Below are positions 1 to 64,000 of a stretch of DNA of 64,000 bases, piece after piece; within the stretch, counting starts at the first letter, position 1, and every line of letters begins with the position of its first letter. This DNA is from Burkholderiales bacterium. Lineage in GTDB: Bacteria; Pseudomonadota; Gammaproteobacteria; Burkholderiales; SG8-39. A model generated the notes under the pieces. It had not been told where the DNA came from, did not search any database, and saw only the letters and a list, made by a program, of their open reading frames with translations. Location: the NCBI GenBank assembly GCA_035652275.1, contig DASREB010000117.1, positions 5,408-69,407 on the forward strand. The letters run 5' to 3'. Both the position numbers and the translations under genes were made by a program.

Positions 1-373
1 TATCCTGCGTCGGCGGCGCGTCGACGTGCGCCAGGGTCGCCCCAAGGGCGTGCGCGCCTACCGCTTCGGGGGTTGGCAGCTGAACCTCAATAGCCGTCGC
101 CTAACCGCGCAGGATCGCGAGCCGGTGGCGCTCACTAATGGAGAGTTCAATCTGTTGGTCGCGCTGCTCGGCGCACCGAATCGTGTCCTGTCGCGCAATC
201 AGCTCCTGGATCGATCGCGCCTGCACAACGACGAGGTATTTAATCGCTCGGTCGATGTACAGATCATGCGCCTCCGACGCCTCATCGAGCGCGATGAGGC
301 CGAGCCGCGATACATCAAAACAGAGCGCGGCACGGGCTACGTCTTCAATGCGGCGGTCGAGGCCCTGTACTGA
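1..373 (+). CDS. OmpR/PhoB-family response regulator, C-terminal winged-helix DNA-binding domain (5' part outside the window)
   Basis: The reading frame is open to the window edge. The translation RFGGWQLNLNSRRL...LTNGEFNLLVALLGAPNRVLSRNQLLD...VDVQIMRLRRLIE...IKTERGTGYVF matches the OmpR-type Trans_reg_C signature. Confidence 0.8.
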   Translation, partial: ILRRRRVDVRQGRPKGVRAYRFGGWQLNLNSRRLTAQDREPVALTNGEFNLLVALLGAPNRVLSRNQLLDRSRLHNDEVFNRSVDVQIMRLRRLIERDEAEPRYIKTERGTGYVFNAAVEALY

Positions 374-740: not shown

Positions 741-2165
741 CTATAGCGACTTCAAGTACTCGACCAGCTCCGCTTTTTCCTGGCTGGTCAGCCCGAGCCT
801 GAAGTTGCGATCGTAGTGGTCGATCACCGCCGCCAAGTTCGGGAAGCGCCCATCGTGGTAAAAGCCGCCCTTCTGGTGTGTCCACAGTCCCGCGAGCGGC
901 GCGGTCCGGTACATCAGGGTCGGCGAGCGGCGGGCCTGGAACGAATCAATCTCGGGCTGGGTCGAGTCGACGAATATCTCCTCCGGCTTGTGCAAGTTGT
1001 GCCCCGGCTCGGTGAAGAGCGGCGGAACGTGGCAGGTCGAGCACTGCGCTCTTCCGTTGAACACCTCTTTCCCGCGCTCGGCCGCTGCCCTGTCGAAACT
1101 GCCCTTGGGCGGCGTTGGCGCCGGGATGGCGAGCTGATAGAAGTGCAACGCGCCCAACTTCGACGTGACCAAGTCGGGGGCGCCGCGTACATTGAAGGAG
1201 CCGCTTCTCGCCGCGACCGGGTACTGAGCCTCGGTGTCCTTGGTGCCCCCCAGGCGAAGGTCGAAGAAGACGCCCGAGCCGTGCTGCTGGGTCACGGCGA
1301 CGTAAGCGTTCCAGTACGGGACCGAGCCAGACCCGGTCCAAGTGTGCAGGTTCACCCCGGCGAGGCCGAAGGCAGGCGGAATCAGCGTGCACGCCCGTCC
1401 TCCATCCGGCCGCAAGCCCTTGCCGTCCTTGTCGAGCCACGCGTCGTAGCAGCCAGGACCCCAGCTGGTGAGCACTTTCTTCACCGTGGCCTCGTCGACC
1501 TGGAGAAGATCGGTGAAGGGCTTGAGGTTTGGAGCGAGCGAGACGATGAGGCCGACGTTGAGATCGCGATTGGCCCAGCCGTCCAGGCGCTTGCCGATGC
1601 CCGGTGCGAAGGAGTCGTGCACCTTCGAATGGCAAAAGGCGCATTGGGTTCCGAGCGACGTGATCCTGCCCACGTTGTCGAATCGACCGGTCAGTCCGAC
1701 CACGGCGTTGAGCTTGAGCAGTGCCAGCGTCGTGGCGGGATCGTCGAGGTTGACCTTGCCCGCCTTGAGCTGCGCTTTCAATTGGTCAGGCAAAGCATCC
1801 ACGTCGACTTTGAGGCCGACCGCGAGCGCGGTCTTCGGGCTGATTCCGGGTCCCACGCCGCCGTTTTGCGCGCCCGCGATGGCTCGGTGCAGCTGCAGGG
1901 CATCGCCGAAGAAGGCCTCGGAGCCGTAGGTGTCGAAGCGGAAGATCTGCCTGCCTCTTTCGAGCATGTCTTCGGCGTGCGCGTTGATTTGGCGGTCGTT
2001 CTCGGAGAGCCGCTTCCGGCGGTCCCCATCCCTCGATTCGCCCCTGTCGTTGGATTCCTGCGCTTGAGCACTTCCCTGCTTGCCGATGCCGGCTCCGAAC
2101 CCGACAAGCATGACGAGCCCGATGACCGAGGCACCGATGACAGGTCCAATCAATTTAAATCTCAT
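741..2165 (-). CDS. Secreted di-haem c-type cytochrome, CCP/MauG-like (paralog 1)
   Basis: ATG at 2165 has AAGGAG 7 nt upstream. The N-terminal signal/TM segment is MRFKLIGPVIGASVIGLVMLVGF. There are two CXXCH motifs (CAFCH, CSTCH). The C-terminal block CSTCHVPPLFTEPGHNLH...RTAPLAGLWTHQKGGFYHDGRF..L..VIDHYD resembles the cytochrome c peroxidase/MauG C-terminal haem domain. The upstream part of the 526-aa ORF was rejected as having no RBS or signal logic. Confidence 0.7.
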   Translation of the reverse strand: MRFKLIGPVIGASVIGLVMLVGFGAGIGKQGSAQAQESNDRGESRDGDRRKRLSENDRQINAHAEDMLERGRQIFRFDTYGSEAFFGDALQLHRAIAGAQNGGVGPGISPKTALAVGLKVDVDALPDQLKAQLKAGKVNLDDPATTLALLKLNAVVGLTGRFDNVGRITSLGTQCAFCHSKVHDSFAPGIGKRLDGWANRDLNVGLIVSLAPNLKPFTDLLQVDEATVKKVLTSWGPGCYDAWLDKDGKGLRPDGGRACTLIPPAFGLAGVNLHTWTGSGSVPYWNAYVAVTQQHGSGVFFDLRLGGTKDTEAQYPVAARSGSFNVRGAPDLVTSKLGALHFYQLAIPAPTPPKGSFDRAAAERGKEVFNGRAQCSTCHVPPLFTEPGHNLHKPEEIFVDSTQPEIDSFQARRSPTLMYRTAPLAGLWTHQKGGFYHDGRFPNLAAVIDHYDRNFRLGLTSQEKAELVEYLKSL

Positions 2166-2959
2166 GGGAACTCCTTGTGCTGCAGGGTTATTGGGTTTCT
2201 GCGTCTTTAAATGCGACGAGTGCTTGTCCGCGCTTTGAGCCTCCGACTGTGAACTGCAACTTCCGGCGTCGCCACACACACGTTCAACATGGCGTGCCGA
2301 CAAGCAGCGCGCTGCACCCAAGTTGAGCCTCTTCGCTGACCGTCAAGAAGTGGGAGCCGGTTTTGCACGGATTGCATCACGGGCGTGAAGGCCACTCAAT
2401 AAGACGATGGTATCGGTGTCTACTTAAGTCGCTCTGTCACCTTTCTGACCGCCGACACGTAACGCAGCACGCATCGCGGTACGTGTGAGAAGGCGGCTGC
2501 CTATGCTGCGCTCGCATCGCTCGCAACCCAGGATGGAAATTGCACGATGGACCCGACCACGACCAATGGCGGCACGCAGATCTATTAACAGATGTCGGCC
2601 GACACCATCGTCCAATAGATTCGCTTCCAAGCCTCTGGTCTGATCGCGTCTGGCTTCGCGCGAGCGAGCTTTTCAGAAGGGCATCGATCCATGGCCCAAG
2701 ACGGAAAATCGAACAGCGCTGACCGAGCGCAATTTTTGTTGCAGCCTCAGCCATGGCAACCGAAGACTTCTACCGGAAGGAGCGAGCCGGCTCGACGCAA
2801 AGCGGTCCACCGTCAATTGACGTCTAGCAGATGCGCGAACTCGTATCTCACCAATTCGTAGCATCGCAGGAGTTGCAGCTGTAACGCGTTCGACTACGAA
2901 AATAGTACGATTGCCATCGACGTACGTAGGCGTACATTCGTCGCACCACGGAGTGCACC

Positions 2960-3949
2960 GTGAATCCGAATCCCTCACGCATTGCGGCGCTCGAAGCCTT
3001 GACGGATAGCCAACTCGTTGCAGTGATCGTGGCGGGCGACATGCGCGCCTTTGAGCGGCTGATGAGCCTGCACAAGAACAGGCTTTTTCGAACCGCGCGC
3101 GCCATATTGCGAGACGACGCCGAGGCGGAAGATGCCGTTCAGGAGGCGTTTCTCCAGGCGTATCGAGGTCTTGGCTCCTTTCGCGGCGAGGCGAAGCTTT
3201 CGACCTGGCTGGTGAGCATCGCAGTGAACGCGGCGCTGATGCGCCGTCGACGCCATGTCCGGGAACCATTGGCAATGCCTCTGGACGGCACTGGCGGCGC
3301 CGCGGAGCGCGAGGGGATTTCCAGGGCGCCCGGCCCTGAGGGCCTCGCGGCGCGCGCAGACATTCGACAGCTGCTCCAGGATCAGATCGACGCATTGCCC
3401 GATTACTATCAGGCGGTATTCAGGGCGAGAGCGATCGATGGGCTCACGGTTGCGGAAACGGCCGCCACCCTTGGAATTTCGGAGGCGACAGTTCGCAGCC
3501 GCTATTTCAGGGCGCGCAGCCTGCTGCGAGAGGGTCTGACGCGGGAATCCAACAAACCGGCGAGCCTCGAATGCCCGATCGTCATCACCGACCGGGACCG
3601 CAAGCGTCTAATGCTGCTAAAGCCGAATGCTGCCCTCCTGCGCGAAATCGACCGCGCAGTGCTGATTTCGCCCCAAGCGGCGACCGTCGCGCATGCCGTA
3701 ACCATGAATACTCAGGTCTTTTATACGGATGAGACAAGGGGCGACCAACGGCACCTCAACCTCGTCTATCCGCAAGAAGCCGGCGGGTGCGTATGCTGCG
3801 TGTCCGTCCTGGATCCCATAGGTACGGCCCTATTCGGGCTGTCGGCCGGGCAAGCGATCGAATGGGATTTCCCTGATGGCAGCCACCGCCTGCGCGTGAA
3901 CAACGTGATTCATCATGACTGCCCGATCAATACACGGAGTCCGGCTTAA
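2960..3949 (+). CDS. ECF (sigma-70 family) sigma factor fused in frame to an Rnk/GreA-GreB-C-like domain
   Basis: GTG start has GGAG 8 nt upstream. Region 2 reads DAVQEAFLQAYRGLGSFRGEAKLSTWLVSIAVNAAL. The region 4 HTH reads LTVAETAATLGISEATVRSRYFRARSLL. The C-terminal ~120 aa align colinearly with the standalone Rnk at 62686-63090 (VTMNTQVFYTDE.., VSVLDPIGTALFGLSAGQAIEW). Confidence 0.75.
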   Translation: MNPNPSRIAALEALTDSQLVAVIVAGDMRAFERLMSLHKNRLFRTARAILRDDAEAEDAVQEAFLQAYRGLGSFRGEAKLSTWLVSIAVNAALMRRRRHVREPLAMPLDGTGGAAEREGISRAPGPEGLAARADIRQLLQDQIDALPDYYQAVFRARAIDGLTVAETAATLGISEATVRSRYFRARSLLREGLTRESNKPASLECPIVITDRDRKRLMLLKPNAALLREIDRAVLISPQAATVAHAVTMNTQVFYTDETRGDQRHLNLVYPQEAGGCVCCVSVLDPIGTALFGLSAGQAIEWDFPDGSHRLRVNNVIHHDCPINTRSPA

Positions 3950-4060: not shown

Positions 4061-4183
4061 TCACCGGCTGAGCAGCCGCACCAGCAAGATGACAATGATC
4101 GCCAGCAACGCAACGGCCAGAGCCCAGCCAAGCGCTCCAAACCCCATCATCCAACCCATCATTGAATTCATCATCGAACCCAT
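4061..4183 (-). CDS. Candidate 40-aa Met-rich single-pass membrane peptide (below the ORF-track cutoff)
   Basis: My own translation is MGSMMNSMMGWMMGFGALGWALAVALLAIIVILLVRLLSR. The ATG at 4183 lies 10 nt after the stop of the DUF326 gene (TGAgggcggtgtaATG). The peptide has a Met-rich head, a hydrophobic helix and a basic tail. Its third-position composition looks similar to neighbouring genes by eye. Confidence 0.45.
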   Translation of the reverse strand: MGSMMNSMMGWMMGFGALGWALAVALLAIIVILLVRLLSR

Positions 4184-4193
4184 TACACCGCCC

Positions 4194-4571
4194 TCAGTGC
4201 ACGGAAGCGGCAGATCTTTGCGCAGGATGCGCCTTCGCCTCGGCGGACGCCATGCGACGGCACTCCTGCGCGCAACGCCAGCACGCTTTGGCGCAATCCT
4301 GGCAATACCTCATCGCATGCCGCGCGCATTCCTCGCCGCAGATATCGCAAACGGCAGCGGACAACCGGCAGAGCACGGCAGCGAGCTCGCTGCCTCGCGA
4401 CATGTAGCCGGCTGCCAGCCTGCTTATGTGCGCGCAATCCATATCGAGCTGGATACACCGGACCATCTTTGCTGGGTCCTCCTCCTTCAGGCAGGCGGCC
4501 GCGCAGCGATGGCATGCGGCTGCACACTCATTGCAGGCGCTAATGCAAGAATTGAAGTGATCTTGATACAT
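4194..4571 (-). CDS. Four-helix-bundle Cys-rich copper-binding protein (DUF326 family)
   Basis: ATG at 4571 has GGAG upstream. The translation MYQDHFNSCISACNECAAACHRCAAACLKEEDPAKMVRCIQLDMDCAHISRLAA...CDICGEECARH...CQDCAKACWRCAQEC shows the repeated CxxxC pattern typical of DUF326. The longer 197-aa ORF overlaps folE2 and was rejected. Confidence 0.8.
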   Translation of the reverse strand: MYQDHFNSCISACNECAAACHRCAAACLKEEDPAKMVRCIQLDMDCAHISRLAAGYMSRGSELAAVLCRLSAAVCDICGEECARHAMRYCQDCAKACWRCAQECRRMASAEAKAHPAQRSAASVH

Positions 4572-4590
4572 ATCCGTCTCCTGTTCGCAC

Positions 4591-5382
4591 TTAGGCACGG
4601 GTGATCCGCGCAAATGCCGAATGGTTGTGAATCGACTCGAAGTTTTCCGCCTCGACCGTGTACGCGCCGACGCGCGGATCGCGGTTGAGTGCCAGTGCCA
4701 CATCGCGCACCACGTCTTCGACGAACTTGGGATTCTCGTACGCGCGTTCCGTGACGTATTTTTCATCGGGACGCTTGAGCAGCCCATACACCTCGCAGGA
4801 GGCGCTGCGCTCGGCGATGCCGATCAGTTCTTCGATTCGCATCTCGTCCGTCAGCTCAGCTTCGATGGCAATACAGGAGCGCTGGTTATGGGCGCCGTAC
4901 TCGGAGATCGCCTTCGAACAGGGGCACAGGCTGGTCGCCGGCACTGCCACGCGCATCGAGAACGCGGACTCTCCTTCGTCGTCCAGGGTGCCGCGCCAGC
5001 AGACCTCGTAGTCCAGCTGGCTCTGAACGCCCGAGACGGGCGCGGCCTTGCGTACAAAGTACGCAAACCGCATCTCGATCGTGCCGGCCGGTGCCCGCAG
5101 CCGTTCGAGCATGTCGGCTACCAGGGCCATGAAGCGCGGCATGTTCAGCGGCTGGCGTTGTGAATCGAGCAGCTCGACGAAGCGCGACATATGGGTGCCC
5201 TTCTCGCTCGCCGCGAGACCGACGGTCATAGAGAATGTCGCGATCACGGGCACGGAACCCTCCTCCGCTTGAATGGCGATGGGATAACGCAGGCCCTTGA
5301 TTCCGACGGCGTCGATCTGCACGTTGCGACGGTCGGGCCGGGATTGAACATCCTCGAGGGCAATTCGCTCTGGCGCATTCAT
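4591..5382 (-). CDS. folE2: GTP cyclohydrolase FolE2 (GCYH-IB)
   Basis: The translation MNAPERIALEDVQSRPDRRNVQIDAVGIKGLRYPIAI...KGTHMSRFVELL...SLCPCSKAISEYGAHNQRS...ENFESIHNHSAFA carries FolE2 hallmarks. The start at 5382 matches typical FolE2 N-termini. An alternative ATG exists at 5457. Confidence 0.9.
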   Translation of the reverse strand: MNAPERIALEDVQSRPDRRNVQIDAVGIKGLRYPIAIQAEEGSVPVIATFSMTVGLAASEKGTHMSRFVELLDSQRQPLNMPRFMALVADMLERLRAPAGTIEMRFAYFVRKAAPVSGVQSQLDYEVCWRGTLDDEGESAFSMRVAVPATSLCPCSKAISEYGAHNQRSCIAIEAELTDEMRIEELIGIAERSASCEVYGLLKRPDEKYVTERAYENPKFVEDVVRDVALALNRDPRVGAYTVEAENFESIHNHSAFARITRA

Positions 5383-5519
5383 GATCGCGCGCGGATCTCG
5401 GGAAACTCGCCCGACACACGCTGGCGCTGCGAGTTGGCGAAGAAGTTGTTTTCCCATAGACCGCCGCCAATCACGTAGGCCGAGGCTGCCGTAAGGCTGC
5501 GTTTTGCGATGCGTGCCAT
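5379..5519 (-). CDS. Candidate 46-aa upstream ORF translationally coupled to folE2
   Basis: AGGAGaatcgccATG gives a strong RBS at 7-nt spacing. The translation is MARIAKRSLTAASAYVIGGGLWENNFFANSQRQRVSGEFPEIRARS. Its TGA overlaps the folE2 ATG as ATGA. I recognise no family. Confidence 0.35.
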   Translation of the reverse strand: MARIAKRSLTAASAYVIGGGLWENNFFANSQRQRVSGEFPEIRARS

Positions 5520-5691
5520 GGCGATTCTCCTAGTGCGCCACCAATGGGATGCCACGGCACGCGCCAGCGTTCCCTTAAGCATCGGTTTTCTTCGATGAGC
5601 ATTGTTGGACTGAGGGACCAATAAGTTTCGTTTTACTTCATCTCGTCCGTGGCGGACCATGCGCAATACATGACAGCCAGCGGGACATACG

Positions 5692-59483: not shown

Positions 59484-61598
59484 ATGAGCAGCGTCCTTGC
59501 CGCGGGCCGCAACTGCTGGCGGATAGAACGAGCGAAGCGCCTTGCGTTCTTCATCGACGCGGCGGACTACTTTGCTGCAGTGCGCGCGGCGATCCGACAA
59601 GCGAAGAGGAGCGTCTTCATCCTCGGCTGGGACATCGACAGTCGCGTGCGCCTCGTGCCACAGGGCGCGAACGACGGCTATCCCGAGGAGCTCGGGCCAT
59701 TCCTCGAGGAGGTGGTGCGGCGCGAGCGCGGGCTTCGCATGTACGTGCTGAGCTGGGATTTCGCGATGGCCTTTGCGCTCGATCGCGAATGGGTTCCGCT
59801 CTACAAGCTCGGCTTGCGCACCATGCCGCACCCGCGGTTTCACTTTCGCCTGGACGGTCGCCACCCGGTGAGCGGCTCGCATCACCAGAAAGTGGTGGTG
59901 GTCGACGATCGCGTGGCGTTCGTCGGCGGCCTTGATCTCACGCACGGCCGCTGGGACACGCCCGAGCACAAGCGGGTTCAGCCGTTGCGCGTCGATGTGC
60001 GCGGGCGCATCTCGCGGCCGAACCACGATGTGCAGGCGATCGTCGATTGCGGCGCCGCGCGCGCGCTCGGCGAACTTTGTCGCGTTCGCTGGTTACACGC
60101 GAGCGGCGAGCAGCCGTACGTCGAAAATATACCCCTGCCCGACTCGCACGATCCCTGGCCGCGCGATGTGAGCGCTGAGATCACCGCGGTCGAGGTTGGG
60201 ATTGCGCGCACCGACCCCGGCTTCGCCGACGGCAAGCCCGTGCACGAGATTCGCGCGCTCTATCTCGGCGCCATCGCTAGCGCGTGTCGTACGCTCTACA
60301 TAGAGAACCAGTACTTCAGCTCGAGCGAGCTTGGCGCGGCGCTCGCCGGGCGGCTGGCCGAACCCGCAGGCCCTGAAATGGTGGTCGTTTCCCGGCTCAC
60401 CGAGGAAGGCTGGCTCGAGGCGCGCACCATGGGCGCACTGCGCGGCGTCCTGCATCGGCAGCTAAAAGCCGCGGACACGCATGAGCGCTACCGCCTTTAC
60501 TACCCCTTCATCCCGGGGCTCGAGCGGCCCGATCTCCTGAACGTGCACAGCAAGGTGCTCGTGGTCGACGACGAGCTTTGCACCGTCGGCTCGGCGAATT
60601 TCAACAACCGCTCGATGGGCTACGACACCGAATGCAATCTCGTACTGGAAGCGCGCGGCGAGCCGCGGGTGCGAAGCGTGATCGCCAACCTGAGGAACCG
60701 CCTCCTCGCGGAGCACCTTGCCACGCGCCCGGAGCTGGTGGCTACGGAAATCTCGAGCAGGCGCGGCAGCGTGATCGCGGCCATCGAAGCGCTGCGTCGC
60801 CCGGGCCGCACGCTCGAGCCGATCGATCCCCAGGTGCCGCCACAGGTCGAATCGCTGCTTTCCGCTTCGCTCCTCATGGATCCGGAGCGCCCCGCCGATC
60901 CCGAAAGCCTTGTGCAGGACTTCGTGCCGCCGGATCTGCATCGCCCGATGACCACGCGCGTCGCACTGCTTGCGCTTGTGCTGCTCGCGCTCGCCGCCCT
61001 CGCCTTCGCCTGGCGCTCGACGAGCCTGCATCAGCTCGTGCCGCTTCATGAATATATAGCCGGGGCGCGGTTGATTCCGGTTGCCGGCGTTTTGGCGATT
61101 TACGTCCTTGCAGGACTACTGCCAATCCCGATTTCACTCGTGATCGTTGCCACCGTAGTGGTATTCGGGCCGCTGCGGGGCGGCGGCTACGCGCTCGTCG
61201 GCACGATTGCAAGCGCGGTGCTCGTCTACGGCCTTGGGCGCGCGCTCGGCCGGCAGCGCGTGCGGCAGATCGCGGGGCGGCGTCTGAATCGCATCACTCG
61301 GCGGTTTGCGCGCGGCGGCATGCCTGCAGTCGCGGTGCTGCGACTCGTCCCGGTTGCGCCGTTTTCGCTCGTCAGTGCAGTGGCCGGCGCATCGTTCATT
61401 CCATTCCGGCGTTTCTTTTGGGGCACCGCGCTCGGCATGGCGCTTCTCATCGCGCTCATCGCCTCCTTCTACAACGCGGTGCAGGCAGTGCTCGCCCAGC
61501 CGGGGCCCGTCACCTACGCGACGCTCGCAGCAGCGACGGCCATCGTCGGCGGCGGCGCCTTCGTCGTCTGGCGCCGCTTCAGGGCTGAGGATCAGTAG
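59484..61598 (+). CDS. Phospholipase D / cardiolipin-synthase-like protein (two HKD motifs) fused to a C-terminal VTT (DedA/TVP38-type) membrane domain
   Basis: HKD1 is HHQKVVVVDDRVAFVGGLDL and HKD2 is VHSKVLVVDDELCTVGSANFNNRS. The C-terminal ~220 aa are multi-TM with the block LRLVPVAPFSLVSAVAGAS. ATG at 59484 follows GAGAGGG. Confidence 0.8.
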   Translation: MSSVLAAGRNCWRIERAKRLAFFIDAADYFAAVRAAIRQAKRSVFILGWDIDSRVRLVPQGANDGYPEELGPFLEEVVRRERGLRMYVLSWDFAMAFALDREWVPLYKLGLRTMPHPRFHFRLDGRHPVSGSHHQKVVVVDDRVAFVGGLDLTHGRWDTPEHKRVQPLRVDVRGRISRPNHDVQAIVDCGAARALGELCRVRWLHASGEQPYVENIPLPDSHDPWPRDVSAEITAVEVGIARTDPGFADGKPVHEIRALYLGAIASACRTLYIENQYFSSSELGAALAGRLAEPAGPEMVVVSRLTEEGWLEARTMGALRGVLHRQLKAADTHERYRLYYPFIPGLERPDLLNVHSKVLVVDDELCTVGSANFNNRSMGYDTECNLVLEARGEPRVRSVIANLRNRLLAEHLATRPELVATEISSRRGSVIAAIEALRRPGRTLEPIDPQVPPQVESLLSASLLMDPERPADPESLVQDFVPPDLHRPMTTRVALLALVLLALAALAFAWRSTSLHQLVPLHEYIAGARLIPVAGVLAIYVLAGLLPIPISLVIVATVVVFGPLRGGGYALVGTIASAVLVYGLGRALGRQRVRQIAGRRLNRITRRFARGGMPAVAVLRLVPVAPFSLVSAVAGASFIPFRRFFWGTALGMALLIALIASFYNAVQAVLAQPGPVTYATLAAATAIVGGGAFVVWRRFRAEDQ

Positions 61599-62689
61599 CG
61601 GTAGATCGCCGCCGCGCCGCTGCGCGTCGGCATGCGCGCCGCGGGAACCACGATGACCTGTCCGCCGTTCCTCAGCGCCGCCTCGCCGAGATCGTCGATT
61701 CGCTCATCAGTGCCCGCGTCTTCGTGTTCGGCCTCGAGGAGCAGCGTCGCGACCCGTCCCGCCGATGCGCTTTCGGTCAATTCGTCGAGGTCATCGGTCC
61801 CGAGCTCTTTGGCGCGCGCGGCTCCGAACATCTCCACAAGACCGGAAAGGCGCGCCAGGTAGTGCGGTTCAAGCACGCGCCAGGCACGACGGCGCAATTC
61901 GTCCGCGGAAAGCGATTGCGGATCGCAGTCGATACCATCAGCAAGGAGGAATGGGTTGTGGCTGAAGGCGCGGAAGCGCGCCTGGTTCTCGGCCAGCGCC
62001 GCGAGCACCAGCGGCAGGCCCGACGGCCGCGAGTGCTGCTCGAGGATCGCCCGGTCGAGCGCGCGGAAGAACTTGGAGGTGTCGCGCTCCATCTCGACGT
62101 CCTTCTCGCCGCCCTGACCGTGGTGCACGCCCGCGCCCGCTCCAGGTCCAGAGGCGCCGGCGCGGTACGTCCATACGGACGAGTGCGCCTGCTTGCGCTC
62201 GTCGCCGATCGCCTCTTCCACGATGCGCGGCACCGCCGGATCAAGCTCGATTTCGTCGAGCACGTCGCGGTCGCCCTCAAAGAGGCGCGCGCCGCCCCGG
62301 CTGAGCGCCAGCACCTGGAAGCGCTCGGCCGACTGAAGGATGCGCAACAAGGGCTTGACGTGGAAGGTGTCGGCGACGATGGCGCGCTCGCCTACCGGGC
62401 GTTGCAGGCGATAGATCCTGAAGACGCCGCGCGCGGCGAATGCGGCGAGCGACTCGAGGCTGCGGTTCCAGAAGCGCTCATCGGCCGCGAGCGCGTAGAA
62501 CGGCGCCAGCAGCGCCGCGGCATCGTCGCGCGGGTGTCGCGCGCCAAGGGACGCCTCCAGCTGCTTCACGAGATTGCGGAAGCGAATCGGATCCTGCGCA
62601 TTTTCCGGATGCGAGCGGTGCGTCGGCTGGTAGAGCGACAGACAGGGCGGCTCGTAGCTGCCTTGCAGGAGATCTTCCAACGTCTTCAT
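61592..62689 (-). CDS. eRF1/Pelota-like protein (bacterial archaeo-eukaryotic release-factor family, baeRF3-like)
   Basis: The N-terminus reads PCLSLYQPTHRSHPENAQDPIRFRNLVKQLE. The C-terminus reads GRVATLLLEAEHE...GGQVIVVPAARMPTRSGAAAIYRY, which resembles the ..GGIGAILRY end of eRF1/aRF1/Pelota domain 3. The start overlaps the rnk stop as ATGA. Confidence 0.5.
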   Translation of the reverse strand: MKTLEDLLQGSYEPPCLSLYQPTHRSHPENAQDPIRFRNLVKQLEASLGARHPRDDAAALLAPFYALAADERFWNRSLESLAAFAARGVFRIYRLQRPVGERAIVADTFHVKPLLRILQSAERFQVLALSRGGARLFEGDRDVLDEIELDPAVPRIVEEAIGDERKQAHSSVWTYRAGASGPGAGAGVHHGQGGEKDVEMERDTSKFFRALDRAILEQHSRPSGLPLVLAALAENQARFRAFSHNPFLLADGIDCDPQSLSADELRRRAWRVLEPHYLARLSGLVEMFGAARAKELGTDDLDELTESASAGRVATLLLEAEHEDAGTDERIDDLGEAALRNGGQVIVVPAARMPTRSGAAAIYRY

Positions 62690-63090
62690 TGCATCTCGCC
62701 CGCCGCCTCCGGTTGGTAAGGCACCGCGGCGATGCGATAGCGCCGCTTGGCGCCGCCCGGCAGCTCCCAGTCGATCGACTGCCCGACCCGCAGGCCAAGG
62801 AGCGCCGTGCCGACCGGCGTCAGGACCGAGATCTTGGCGCTGTCAATGTCCGCGCTTCCGGGATAAACAAGCGTGATCTCACGTCGTTCGCGCGTGCCCT
62901 CATCCTCGAATACGACACGCGAGTTCATGGTGACGACATCTGCGGGGATGGCCTCCCGCGCCACGACGTGCGCTCGCACGAGCTCACGCTCCAGTTGCTC
63001 GAACCGCTTGCCCGGATACGCGTCAACGAGGTGCAGGAGCTTGTCCATGTCTCCCTGCGTCAGGTAAATCGGCGGCAGACCATCGGCCAT
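62686..63090 (-). CDS. rnk: Regulator of nucleoside diphosphate kinase Rnk (GreA/GreB-family RNAP secondary-channel protein), 134 aa
   Basis: The translation is MADGLPPIYLTQGDMDKLLHLV...VVTMNSRVVFEDEGTRERREITLVYPGSADIDSAKISVLTPVGTALLGLRVGQSIDWELPGG. The start is chosen at 63090. The longer 185-aa ORF has an implausible Arg/Ser-rich leader. Confidence 0.85.
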   Translation of the reverse strand: MADGLPPIYLTQGDMDKLLHLVDAYPGKRFEQLERELVRAHVVAREAIPADVVTMNSRVVFEDEGTRERREITLVYPGSADIDSAKISVLTPVGTALLGLRVGQSIDWELPGGAKRRYRIAAVPYQPEAAGEMQ

Positions 63091-63127: not shown

Positions 63128-63478
63128 CTACCCAACTGTCCCGGCCGCGCAGCGCGGCAGCGGGCAAGGAACCTCGTAGAAAAGGCGGTTGAGGTACGCA
63201 GAGACGTCCTCGATTTCGTCCACACTCCAGGTCTGCCCTGCAATGCCCTGCCACCGAGTCACTTGCTGTACCAGCGTCGGCCAGTCGCGCACCCAGTGAC
63301 GGTTTCGCCAGTGCGTTTCGCGATCGTGGCAGCCTTGGCACGTTGTGCGGTAGAGCAGCTCGCCGCGCGCCGGATCGGCGATCGCGTGCGCAGGCACGGC
63401 TGCGGTGTGGGGCGGCTCCGGGGGATTGGAAGCGCAGCCGGCGAGCGCGAGTGCGAGCAATAGGGGCAGCGGGGGCAT
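63128..63478 (-). CDS. Small lipoprotein c-type cytochrome (single CXXCH)
   Basis: The signal peptide MPPLPLLLALALAGC carries a lipobox. The haem motif is TTCQGCH. At 116 aa, it sits directly upstream of rnk on the same strand. Confidence 0.6.
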   Translation of the reverse strand: MPPLPLLLALALAGCASNPPEPPHTAAVPAHAIADPARGELLYRTTCQGCHDRETHWRNRHWVRDWPTLVQQVTRWQGIAGQTWSVDEIEDVSAYLNRLFYEVPCPLPRCAAGTVG

Positions 63479-63576
63479 GCAATCGACCAGCAGAAATCGT
63501 TCCGGCGCGGGGGCCGCGCTCAGCGATCGCAGGCCGCGATCTTGCTCCCGTCCGCCGCAGGCGTGATTCGGCGGAC

Positions 63577-64000
63577 ATGGAGAGTTCATTACACACGCTC
63601 GCCGCGGACGTTGGCGGCACCAACGCCCGCTTCGCGATTGCGGAACGGATGTCCGGCGCAGTCCGAATTGTCTTTCAGCGCACATATCCGACGAAGAGCT
63701 TTCCCGATTTCGAGCCGGCGCTCGAGGCGTTCCTGCGCGAAGCGCGCGCGGCCGGCGCGCTGGGCAGCGATCCGCCGCACGCCGCCATCGCCATCGCCGG
63801 GGCGGTGGACCGCCACGTCGGACGGCTGACGAACCGCAGCAATTGGACCATCGATCTGCGCGAGCTCGGCGAGCATCTCGGAGTGAATGCGCGCCTCATC
63901 AATGATTTCGTCGCGCTGGCGCACGCCGTGCCGCGCGCGCACCCTGGCGACTGGATCGAGCTGCAGGCAGGCGAGCCGGCGCCGGGCGGGACCATTGTGC
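63577..64000 (+). CDS. glk: Glucokinase (N-terminal 141 aa; continues beyond the window)
   Basis: This gene is not in the ORF track because it has no stop in the window. My own translation is MESSLHTLAADVGGTNARFAIAE...HAAIAIAGAV....GRLTNRSNWTIDLRELGEHLGV.ARLINDFVALAHAVP, which matches the Glk pattern GDVGGTNAR...IA.AGP....V..TN..W.....INDF.A. Confidence 0.85.
   Translation, partial: MESSLHTLAADVGGTNARFAIAERMSGAVRIVFQRTYPTKSFPDFEPALEAFLREARAAGALGSDPPHAAIAIAGAVDRHVGRLTNRSNWTIDLRELGEHLGVNARLINDFVALAHAVPRAHPGDWIELQAGEPAPGGTIV

Follow-up and report, generated by a model that had tools for sequence, protein, structure and literature searches.

ECF29 sigma factors are widespread in Proteobacteria, and to our knowledge no member of the group has a known signal or regulator. 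Rnk binds RNA polymerase (RNAP) in vitro, and we know of no established cellular role for it. The Gre transcript-cleavage factors possess a long N-terminal coiled coil and acidic tip residues (D41/E44 in GreA). In holoenzyme structures, the beta-flap, where sigma domain 4 sits, and the secondary channel with the beta-prime rim helices are on different faces of the enzyme. A natural ECF29-Rnk fusion joins two open questions, and a single protein with a defined promoter would allow both to be tested. It has been reported that the RCE/D tail is the defining feature of ECF29 (PMC7826278) and that RpoE8, an ECF29 sigma of S. meliloti, activated nothing when overexpressed 126-fold (PMC6180224), which indicates that ECF29 sigmas need post-translational activation. 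C-terminal extensions are also present in other ECF groups, namely the SnoaL-like extensions of ECF41, ECF56, ECF294, ECF295 and ECF205, the TPR extension of ECF42 and the Cys-rich, metal-dependent extension of ECF238 (CorE/CorE2) (PMC7826278; PMC8999054).

The protein described here, encoded in a 64-kb stretch of DNA that is called the window in its entirety, resembles the groups just listed in that its extension goes with the absence of an anti-sigma factor and is presumed to exert control in cis, and it resembles the CorE type in that conserved cysteines lie inside the extension. Unlike in ECF41, ECF42 and ECF238, the extension consists of a domain known elsewhere as a binder of the RNAP secondary channel, and the core is ECF29-like; unlike the Cys-rich extension of CorE/ECF238, which is ~20–40 aa long, the cysteines are placed within a 125-aa Rnk fold, the likeness being functional only. 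With ECF29 itself (Staron 2009; Casas-Pastor 2021; e.g., S. meliloti RpoE8), it has a similar sigma core, and it shares the predicted promoter type (−35 GGGAAC, −10 GCATCCAA), the lack of an anti-sigma factor, solubility, and a cysteine-containing C-terminal appendage suspected of regulation, whereas the FxFxGxRC(D/E)RI tail has given way to the Rnk fold and the autoregulatory promoter of the sigma gene has apparently been lost. The preliminary description knew of no ECF group with this architecture, and our reading of the 2021 ECF classification with its supplementary group descriptions and of the 2022 review of non-canonical ECFs, like full-text searches, turned up none; GreA, Rnk and PF01272 are not mentioned in the classification text, the supplements of its bioRxiv preprint or the review. 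ECF220, which has a C-terminal extension and occurs in Proteobacteria, was set aside, as it is confined to Polyangiaceae and has no Pfam domain, and an apparent mention of ECF29 in a Cupriavidus paper was a text match to ECF291. With this fusion, the "one-component" repertoire of ECF sigmas gains a new kind of C-terminal extension.

Gene, domains and sigma lineage

As had been claimed earlier, the gene is one uninterrupted ORF of 329 aa, running from its GTG to a stop at 3947–3949; the GGAG element stands 6 nt before the start and not 8 nt (Table 1). Its GenBank entry, from a Burkholderiales MAG, is annotated just as "RNA polymerase sigma factor". The gene is a genuine, conserved, single-polypeptide ECF sigma with an Rnk-fold module. 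An indel that joined a sigma gene to an adjacent rnk gene, giving an artefact or pseudogene, would be the alternative, and errors do occur in such data, since one family member is represented in the database by a frameshifted copy (P0121); however, the identical 329-aa protein is found in a 132-kb ENA contig, in NCBI GCA_037025585.1 and in the Logan assembly of SRR5581483, i.e., in three independent assemblies, the architecture is common to 119 of the 120 best database matches and thus kept down to 55% identity (range 55–91%), and both halves are under purifying selection, so that the probability of such a merger is negligible.

Table 1. Position of the fused gene, its parts and related features in the window.
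Feature	Position	Strand	Basis or remark
Ribosome-binding site GGAG	2950..2953	+	6 nt before GTG start; read from sequence
Fused ECF29-type sigma/Rnk-fold gene, 329 aa	2960..3949	+	HZS66872.1 (GenBank)
Sigma domain 2, residues 28–104	3041..3271	+	Pfam; AF2 helices 28–104, pLDDT around 90
Disordered sigma2–sigma4 linker, residues 105–129	3272..3346	+	pLDDT <50; 45% mean pairwise identity
Sigma domain 4 with helix-turn-helix, residues 130–196	3347..3547	+	Pfam; AF2 helices to 196
Fusion junction, residues 197–205	3548..3574	+	pLDDT <50 at 198–203; 49% mean identity
Rnk-like N-terminal part, residues 206–245	3575..3694	+	Strand and very short helical hairpin
Rnk/Gre C-terminal beta-barrel, residues 246–326	3695..3937	+	PF01272; 3BMB/2PN0 matches; 77% mean identity
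Cysteine cluster C277-V-C279-C280	3788..3799	+	Column counts, 120 fused sequences
C321-P322, third invariant cysteine, where canonical Rnk has YQPEAAG tail	3920..3925	+	Column counts
Candidate target operon	4061..5519	−	Convergent with sigma gene; gene calls, Pfam
40-aa Met-rich membrane peptide	4061–4183	−	Translation
Csp/DUF326 Cys-rich four-helix protein	4194–4574	−	Pfam
FolE2 GTP cyclohydrolase	4591–5457	−	Pfam
Possible 46-aa ORF	5379–5519	−	First ORF; starts 24 nt past promoter
ECF29-type promoter GGGAAC-N17-GCATCCCAT	5544..5573	−	Sole strong site in 64-kb window; pattern and PWM scans
Divergent cytochrome-c-like gene, two CxxCH motifs	741..2168	−	Gene calls, Pfam
Canonical free-standing Rnk paralogue, 134 aa, no cysteines	62686..63090	−	Comparison sequence

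The assignment of residues ~1–195 to an ECF sigma was borne out by Pfam, with Sigma70_r2 at residues 35–101 (E 7e-17), Sigma70_r4_2 at 137–188 (E 1e-14) and a further match to Sigma70_ECF, and the profile scan proposed earlier also returned a Gre-family domain at 246–316 (GreA_GreB C-terminal domain PF01272, E 5.9e-11, 42.6 bits against a cut-off of 26.9). Domains 2 and 4 with a linker, and neither domain 1.1 nor domain 3, give the layout of an ECF (group IV) sigma-70 factor; TIGR02937 is matched with 95.7 bits (cut-off 42.9), and the Foldseek matches include SigE, AlgU, SigW and SigH. In the AlphaFold2 (AF2) model, the helices of sigma domain 4 end just ~11 residues (197–207) before the Rnk fold starts. 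This model packs the module against the sigma domains without confidence (pTM 0.44) and thus gives no positive sign of intramolecular contact. SnoaL and TPR domains were not matched in the fused protein by Pfam.

The sigma core can probably be placed in the ECF29 lineage on the basis of its NF008888/PRK11922 equivalog match (212.7 bits, cut-off 204) and of its nearest relatives, as all 14 of the closest GTDB relatives (46–55% identity) lack the fusion and have FxFxGxRC(D/E)RI at the C-terminus; tail-bearing unfused relatives as a whole show 46–63% identity to the core. The module sits where unfused ECF29 sigmas have their RC(D/E) tail of ~35 aa, and the RCE/D extension (~30 aa) is absent from the fused protein, in which ...REGLTRESNKPASLECPIVIT... 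leads straight into the Rnk fold. An unfused, tail-bearing paralogue lies 3.5 kb upstream, and the DNA upstream of it is paralogous to that upstream of the fused gene. The scan of GTDB species representatives returned unfused relatives only, so the fused family is absent from cultured or representative genomes; it was seen solely in uncultured Burkholderiales and soil metagenomes, and tblastn with residues 201–329 gave no match in 80 loci of unfused relatives.

Promoters and candidate target genes

It has been reported that ECF29 promoters follow the consensus GGGAAC-N17-GCATCCnAT (PMC6180224; supplementary text S2 of bioRxiv 10.1101/2019.12.11.873521). The ECF29 target promoter, with −35 GGGAAC(CT) and −10 (G)CATCCAAT, is present at the fused loci, with 13 occurrences of the motif in 87.6 kb against 0.01 expected; the loci of unfused ECF29-like sigmas have 74 in 480 kb, and 676 kb of loci with other ECFs have none. 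The window site scores 20.6 with the PWM, against 6.4 for the next best site in the 64 kb and with 0.01 expected by shuffling. In unfused loci, the motif precedes the sigma gene on the same strand by less than 400 nt in 56 of 74 cases, against 0 of 13 cases in fused loci, in which it fronts neighbouring genes instead. The PWM found no ECF29 promoter at 2169–2960, before the fused gene, and the fused clade appears to have lost its autoregulatory promoter. Two look-alikes on the plus strand (~2350–2383 and ~2576–2612) were rejected as autoregulatory sites, being far below the PWM threshold; they are conserved with the upstream region of the paralogue, so a degenerate promoter may remain. We infer that the fused sigma itself uses promoters of the type found at 5544–5573, although this promoter could serve the unfused paralogue instead.

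The genes behind the motif vary by locus and include DUF3305/molybdoenzyme genes, aconitase, cytochrome c and a free Rnk. Homologues of the cytochrome-c-like gene stand behind ECF29 promoters in two related loci (L084 and L091), and no ECF29 site was found before the cytochrome-c-like gene of the window. The absence of an anti-sigma gene and the convergent orientation of the genes that follow (the 40-aa Met-rich peptide, Csp/DUF326 and FolE2), both stated in the preliminary description, hold: no anti-sigma domain was detected by Pfam in the cytochrome c-like protein, the Met-rich peptide, Csp, FolE2 or the CBS-BON protein. No Rfam match was obtained for the window or for the conserved leader of related loci.

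The Rnk-fold module and its cysteines

The module shares with GreA/GreB, Gfh1 and DksA the family of the C-terminal globular domain (PF01272), and its fold matches 3BMB and 2PN0 with TM 0.71–0.72 and 32–34% identity over 118–130 aligned columns in Foldseek (for 3BMB, 130 columns of the 135-residue chain at TM 0.72; phmmer E 4.5e-12); 3BMB is E. coli Rnk, the regulator of nucleoside diphosphate kinase, and 2PN0 a GreA/GreB-family protein of Nitrosomonas europaea. The Rnk model NF004396/PRK05753 covers residues 206–318 (profile positions 6–127 of 137, E 3e-24) with a score of 85 bits, which is below the equivalog cut-off of 109. The colinear match to the free-standing Rnk of the window was also recovered (BLASTP, 40% identity over 111 aa, E 2e-21); the position given for this gene stands, and its strand is corrected to minus. 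The description of the module as a complete Rnk is right as regards the whole fold and has to be qualified in other respects, as the hairpin is cut to two helices of 9–10 residues, Rnk_N (PF14760) is not matched in the fused protein at E up to 1, and the YQPEAAG tail is replaced.

In the N-terminal part of the module, the AF2 model has a strand at 208–210 and helices at 211–220 and 224–232, and D213, AALLRE (224–229) and R232-A233 are invariant, the hairpin tip reading LKP(H/N)AALLRE with an invariant tip. The Rnk/Gre C-terminal motifs VTMN, LVYP, SVLxPxGxALxGL and IxW are retained, as in Rnk (3BMB, 2PN0), and mean identity is 77% in the barrel against 74% in sigma domain 2 and 66% in sigma domain 4. 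Unlike Rnk, the module is not free-standing, its hairpin is shorter by a 6-residue deletion relative to the window Rnk, its tail reads HxDCPxN, and a CxCC...C set has been added. Unlike the Gre factors, it lacks a long coiled coil and gives no match to GreA_GreB_N, and since acidic tip residues of the D41/E44 type are absent, as they are in Rnk (3BMB, 2PN0), a transcript-cleavage role is not expected.

Column counts over the 120 fused sequences show C277 in 120, C279 in 119, C280 in 107 (Ser in 10), C321 in 118 and P322 in 119, while C205 at the junction is Cys in just 11. The C277/C279/C280/C321 set is absent from the window Rnk, from the closest free-standing paralogues (47–62% identity) and from two other ECF29-Rnk fusion lineages. 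To judge from these alignments, the invariant cysteines were gained by this fused clade alone, and they are predicted to bind metal or sense thiol oxidation.

The module derives from a lineage-specific Rnk paralogue, and fusion of an ECF29 sigma to Rnk has occurred on at least three separate occasions. The two other lineages carry a canonical Rnk, one of them retaining Rnk_N as well as the RCD tail; as both are without the cysteines, these are not the general reason for fusion, and some property of Rnk, presumably RNAP binding, must matter. The search for module-only homologues covered 58 candidates. Matches of 81–86 aa that start with MNTQV look like truncated gene calls, and P0434, an apparent chimera of a canonical Rnk N-terminus and a Cys-bearing C-terminus on a 909-bp contig, was not relied on.

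Possible roles of the module

With a probability of about one half, the protein is a self-contained, anti-sigma-free sigma factor that carries its own cysteine-based sensor and regulator in the form of the Rnk-fold module. The "anti-sigma-free control device" proposed in the preliminary description fits the replacement of the tail, the gain of cysteines, the loss of autoregulation and a module that is as conserved as sigma domain 2; its mechanism is what we infer from these features.

The same module may be read as a secondary-channel factor that is delivered to RNAP by the sigma to which it is tethered. Docking could take place before the sigma docks, after release of sigma domain 4 at promoter escape, or on a second polymerase, and it could shield the polymerase from DksA/ppGpp and Gre factors, bias it against them, or park the sigma on the core enzyme. 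The retention of all Rnk/Gre C-terminal signature motifs, the fold matches, the high conservation of the module with its invariant tip, and the three independent fusions, two of them with a canonical cysteine-free Rnk, agree with this, and competition among the globular domains of Gre, DksA and Rnk for binding to the beta-prime rim helices has been reported (PMC7527559). Docking alongside a flap-bound sigma domain 4 is nevertheless sterically disfavoured by the 11-residue junction, the hairpin cannot reach far into the channel, and no rnk gene was found beside unfused ECF29 genes, so neighbourhoods lend no support to a general ECF29-Rnk partnership. We regard delivery to the channel as possible, although doubtful. 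The "two-point RNAP attachment" suggested earlier seems implausible, since ~11 residues are probably too short for simultaneous docking at the flap and the rim helices, judging from the geometry of the holoenzyme, and any affinity of the module for RNAP would have to alternate with the docking of promoter-bound sigma rather than add to it. A combined scheme, in which the module docks at the secondary channel in the working cycle of the sigma, the cysteines switch docking by metal or redox state, and Rnk and ECF29 sigmas are partners more widely, is unlikely. If docking on the polymerase did occur, the protein would be the first sigma factor to carry its own secondary-channel effector, and it would couple promoter selection to secondary-channel regulation in a new way; the three fusions would then signal, in the manner of a Rosetta stone, that free-standing Rnk works with ECF29-type sigmas.

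It is also conceivable, at a still lower probability that we consider small, that the module retains a sigma-independent Rnk role, was fused for co-expression and may be cleaved at the junction. The junction is disordered and poorly conserved, and genomes with the fused gene contain multiple free-standing Rnk paralogues, a few of them clustered next to it, both of which are in line with such a passenger; but the ECF29 regulatory tail has been replaced exactly, the fusion coincides with the apparent loss of autoregulation and gain of invariant cysteines, and it has been maintained in at least 119 sequence clusters. Nor does the junction contain an in-frame start bearing a ribosome-binding site on inspection of the sequence: the ATG at 3571 is out of frame, as noted earlier, and it is not the only ATG nearby, an in-frame one at 3611 (M218) lying inside the module.

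In the preferred reading, that of a sigma regulated in cis by its own module, the sigma gene would no longer be autoregulated and would have no anti-sigma partner; the Rnk-fold module would gate sigma activity, and the acquired C277-x-C279-C280 and C321 set would bind metal or sense thiol oxidation. In the permissive state, the sigma would bring RNAP to GGGAAC-N17-GCATCCnAT promoters of neighbouring genes, and in the window the target would be the FolE2/Csp/Met-rich-peptide operon, which would suggest metal stress (copper or zinc) or redox stress. A general copper link was considered and dropped, the Met-rich peptide being present in the window and in one relative (L087) alone; these two loci give a hint of copper or zinc.

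Architecture and reality of the fused protein

The fused protein is an ECF29-lineage sigma in which a Rnk-fold C-terminal domain replaces the tail of the group. As the preliminary description had it, a single open reading frame runs from a GTG codon preceded by GGAG (table), ATG 3571 is out of frame, and the genes that follow are convergent, none of them anti-sigma-like. In most homologues the start is the codon directly before a conserved TD(T/S)EL motif, each with a GGAG; the equivalent codon in the window, TTG 2999 (2999–3001), is without a ribosome-binding site, and GTG 2960 appears to serve as the start in the window's clade, adding 13 N-terminal residues.

Coordinates of the features discussed
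Feature	Locus	Position	Strand	Remarks
Fused sigma-Rnk ORF	window	2960-3949	+	uninterrupted, 329 codons, GTG start
GGAG ribosome-binding site	window	2950-2953	+	upstream of GTG 2960
Met-rich membrane peptide, 40 aa	window	4061-4183	-	last gene of FolE2-Csp operon; MGSMMNSMMGWMMGFG...; MGSMMNSMMGWMMGFGALGWALAVALLAIIVILLVRLLSR
ECF29-type site	window	5544-5573	-	aagGGAACGCTGGCGCGTGCCGTGGCATCCCAT; single strong site, PWM score 20.6
baeRF_family3 gene	window	61592-62689	-	Pfam E 4e-42
Free-standing Rnk	window	62686-63090	-	comparison protein for fused module
Cytochrome-c-like gene	window	63128-63685	-	just upstream of Rnk/baeRF_family3 pair
Unfused ECF29-type paralogue, 246 aa	L081	3694-4434		tail FPFAGKRCAGIV
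ECF29-type promoter	L081	4451-4480	+	precedes OmpR-type response-regulator gene (3' end = window 26-373)
Three free-standing Rnk-like genes	L086	3594-6622		130, 137 and 125 aa
Met-rich peptide homologue	L087	1753-1902	-	directly behind ECF29-type promoter
Conserved leader	L086	6830-7000		5' of fused sigma gene
Conserved leader	L091	4830-5000		5' of fused sigma gene
Conserved leader	L093	510-684		5' of fused sigma gene
Conserved leader	L092	1-135		5' of fused sigma gene

The proposed combination of ECF sigma domains with a Gre-family C-terminal domain was confirmed by HMM scans. Pfam places Sigma70_r2 at residues 35–101 (E 7e-17), Sigma70_r4_2 at 137–188 (E 1e-14) and the GreA/GreB C-terminal domain at 246–316 (E 5.9e-11, exceeding the gathering score). 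In NCBIfam, residues 9–196 match the sigma equivalog NF008888/PRK11922 (212.7 bits against a cut-off of 204), and residues 206–318 align with positions 6–127 of 137 of the Rnk model NF004396 (E 3e-24) with 85 bits, below its cut-off of 109. The reported colinearity with the window's free-standing Rnk also holds (BLASTP, 40% identity over 111 colinear residues, E 2e-21), but the rnk gene lies on the minus strand.

AlphaFold2, run on a 120-sequence alignment (mean pLDDT 83), predicts sigma2 at residues 5–104, a disordered linker at 105–129, sigma4 up to residue 196, a low-confidence junction at 198–203 and the module at 204–326 (pLDDT ~90), made up of a single strand, two helices no longer than 9–10 residues (211–220 and 224–232) and a beta-barrel; the pTM of the full protein is 0.44, so a fixed inter-domain arrangement is not predicted. 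In Foldseek searches against the PDB, the N-terminal half matches ECF sigmas, and the module matches the Nitrosomonas GreA/GreB-family protein 2PN0 (TM 0.71) and E. coli Rnk 3BMB (TM 0.72, 130 columns, 32% identity), the latter also found by phmmer with E 4.5e-12. By these matches, the module contains the entire Rnk fold, with differences: compared with Rnk its hairpin is a stub without a Rnk_N match, unlike Gre it carries no acidic tip residues of the Gre type, and it ends in HxDCPxN where canonical Rnk has YQPEAAG.

That the fusion is an assembly or sequencing error, such as the indel between two genes considered earlier, is poorly supported and exceedingly improbable: the same 329-aa protein (GenBank HZS66872.1, 'RNA polymerase sigma factor', Burkholderiales MAG) is called on three independent assemblies, namely a 132-kb ENA contig, NCBI GCA_037025585.1 and a Logan assembly of SRR5581483. 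When 5.8 billion proteins were searched, 119 of the 120 best matches (55–91% identity, ~310–330 aa) had sigma domains and PF01272, the exception being a fragment. In the 120-sequence alignment the Rnk barrel has the highest mean pairwise identity, 77%, followed by sigma2 (74%) and sigma4 (66%), with 45–49% in linker and junction; both halves are under purifying selection. The family is narrow: clustering of a 1.84-billion-protein library at 50% identity reduces it to ~2 clusters plus fragments, a scan in which each GTDB species was represented by one genome gave no fused copy, and fused loci come from metagenomes only. One family fragment, P0398 (77 aa, 233-bp contig), bears the RefSeq/UniRef label 'GreA/GreB family elongation factor, partial [Klebsiella michiganensis]' and most likely reflects soil Burkholderiales DNA contaminating that assembly.

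ECF29 ancestry, cysteines and recurrence

Among GTDB species representatives, the sigma part is closest (46–55% identity) to 14 proteins from Usitatibacter, Casimicrobiaceae, Thiobacillus, Pelomicrobium, Rhodoferax and Paracandidimonas, all of them unfused and ending in aFxFaGxRC(D/E)RIvxxVLxRL, 30–40 residues past sigma4. This tail is the RCE/D motif-bearing extension of ~30 aa by which Casas-Pastor et al. defined ECF29, a group without an anti-sigma factor and with no member experimentally addressed as of that classification (PMC7826278; bioRxiv supplementary text S2). Just beyond the window's 5' edge, ~3.5 kb 5' of the fused gene, L081 (the locus extending past that edge) carries an unfused ECF29-type paralogue; the DNA upstream of it is paralogous to window 2350–2660, indicating a segmental duplication. 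Neighbour-joining of the sigma cores recovers the fused sequences as a monophyletic group with this paralogue as sister. Given the tree, the upstream DNA and the relatives' tails, the fused gene looks like a duplicated ECF29 gene with its tail replaced.

All 120 sequences of the window's clade have C277, 119 have C279 and 118 have C321, and position 280 holds Cys in 107 of them and Ser in 10; these cysteines stand where ordinary Rnk has DIDSAKI and YQPEAAG. The closest free-standing paralogues (47–62% identity; one in locus L086, plus proteins P0430, P0431 and P0435) have the same short hairpin and YTDE...AIEWDFPDG motifs and no CxCC cluster, only P0430 having a single Cys near its C-terminus; the cysteine set is thus an innovation tied to this clade's fusion.

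In two more lineages an ECF29-type sigma is fused to Rnk. P0158/P0269/P0270 (335–347 aa) have a Rnk of canonical type that lacks cysteines and ends in YQPEAAG; their nearest relatives (78% core identity) are unfused sigmas of 226 aa that have an RCD tail. In P0355 and P0362 (397 and 379 aa) the tail, intact (RCD) in P0355 and with Gly in place of Cys (RGD) in P0362, is followed by a complete Rnk that has its Rnk_N domain. The fusion has therefore arisen in three independent events, so that some property of Rnk itself is under selection. No rnk gene adjoins unfused ECF29 genes in ~100 loci.

Promoters and candidate targets

The reported ECF29 promoter consensus is GGGAAC at -35 and GCATCCAA at -10 (PMC6180224; bioRxiv supplementary text S2). 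The pattern GGAACG-N15-17-CATCnnAT was found at 13 sites in 87.6 kb of fused loci (0.01 expected by shuffling), 74 sites in 480 kb of unfused ECF29-like loci and 0 sites in 676 kb of loci of other ECF groups. At unfused loci, 56/74 sites are found in the orientation of the sigma gene and no more than 400 nt 5' of it, the arrangement of classical autoregulation; at fused loci the corresponding number is 0/13, and all 13 sites are on the opposite strand, facing divergent or convergent neighbours. These neighbours, the predicted targets, encode DUF3305 (together with DUF3306 and a molybdoenzyme), a cytochrome-c-like protein whose family also includes the product of window 741–2168, aconitase, a free-standing Rnk paralogue and a Met-rich peptide.

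The strong site in the window (next-best PWM score 6.4) heads a tight operon convergent with the fused gene, comprising a possible 46-aa ORF, FolE2 GTP cyclohydrolase, a Csp/DUF326 cysteine-rich protein and the Met-rich peptide, a gene content that gives a hint of metal or redox stress. The unfused paralogue, too, could act at this promoter. The Met-rich peptide is shared only by the window and its closest relative, L087; its Met-rich motif, next to a Csp-type protein, suggests Cu(I) handling.

Many fused loci share a conserved leader 5' of the sigma gene (table; partly in L087 and L095), in the order TGCTATGGT (-10-like), a 20–25-codon upstream ORF reading M-K/E-A...DSAPPG-I/V-..AF, and a GC-rich hairpin GGCCCGGTAGCCGCCGCCGG...CCGGGAC. 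It has no Rfam match and is absent from the window; attenuation or translational control may be its function.

Possible roles of the Rnk-fold module

C-terminal regulatory extensions on ECF sigmas are already known, and those of ECF41, ECF42 and ECF238 (PMC7826278; PMC8999054) give the precedent for reading the module as the sigma's built-in sensor/regulator. The fused sigma has no anti-sigma and no autoregulatory promoter, its clade-specific cysteines are invariant, and ECF29-type promoters sit at neighbouring genes. The Rnk-fold module would sense a signal and regulate the attached sigma in cis, with the cysteines acting as a metal or thiol switch; we give this a probability of about 0.5. 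The preliminary description knew of no ECF group with this architecture, and none was found: a Rnk/Gre-type extension is unmentioned in the 2021 ECF classification, its supplementary group descriptions and the 2022 review of non-canonical ECFs, nor does one appear in full-text matches for ECF with GreA or Rnk, in a literature coverage that is not exhaustive.

The beta-flap, where sigma4 binds, and the beta-prime rim helices are probably far apart on RNAP. The two-point RNAP attachment suggested earlier is thus unlikely for this protein, since only ~11 residues separate sigma4 from the Rnk fold. The rim helices are the binding site of Gre/DksA/Rnk (PMC7527559), and secondary-channel docking, alternating with sigma docking or in trans, might itself be what the fusion is for. 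This main rival, which we hold as a doubtful but serious candidate, is favoured by the invariance of the hairpin tip and by the three separate fusion events, two of them involving canonical Rnk. That the module is a mere passenger is poorly supported and quite improbable. In L086, three free-standing Rnk-like genes cluster beside a fused sigma gene, and free Rnk paralogues there also adjoin a translation-factor-like EFG_C protein; the 125-aa gene lies directly behind a divergent ECF29-type promoter, and the cysteine-free protein most similar to the fused module in that locus is the 130-aa one (47% identity). P0434 (137 aa, 909-bp ENA contig), apparently free-standing, joins a canonical Rnk N-terminus (Rnk_N match) to the fused family's Cys-bearing C-terminal barrel and may be a recombinant or assembly chimera. 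In the window, the Rnk gene overlaps the start of the baeRF_family3 gene by 4 nt, which suggests an operon.
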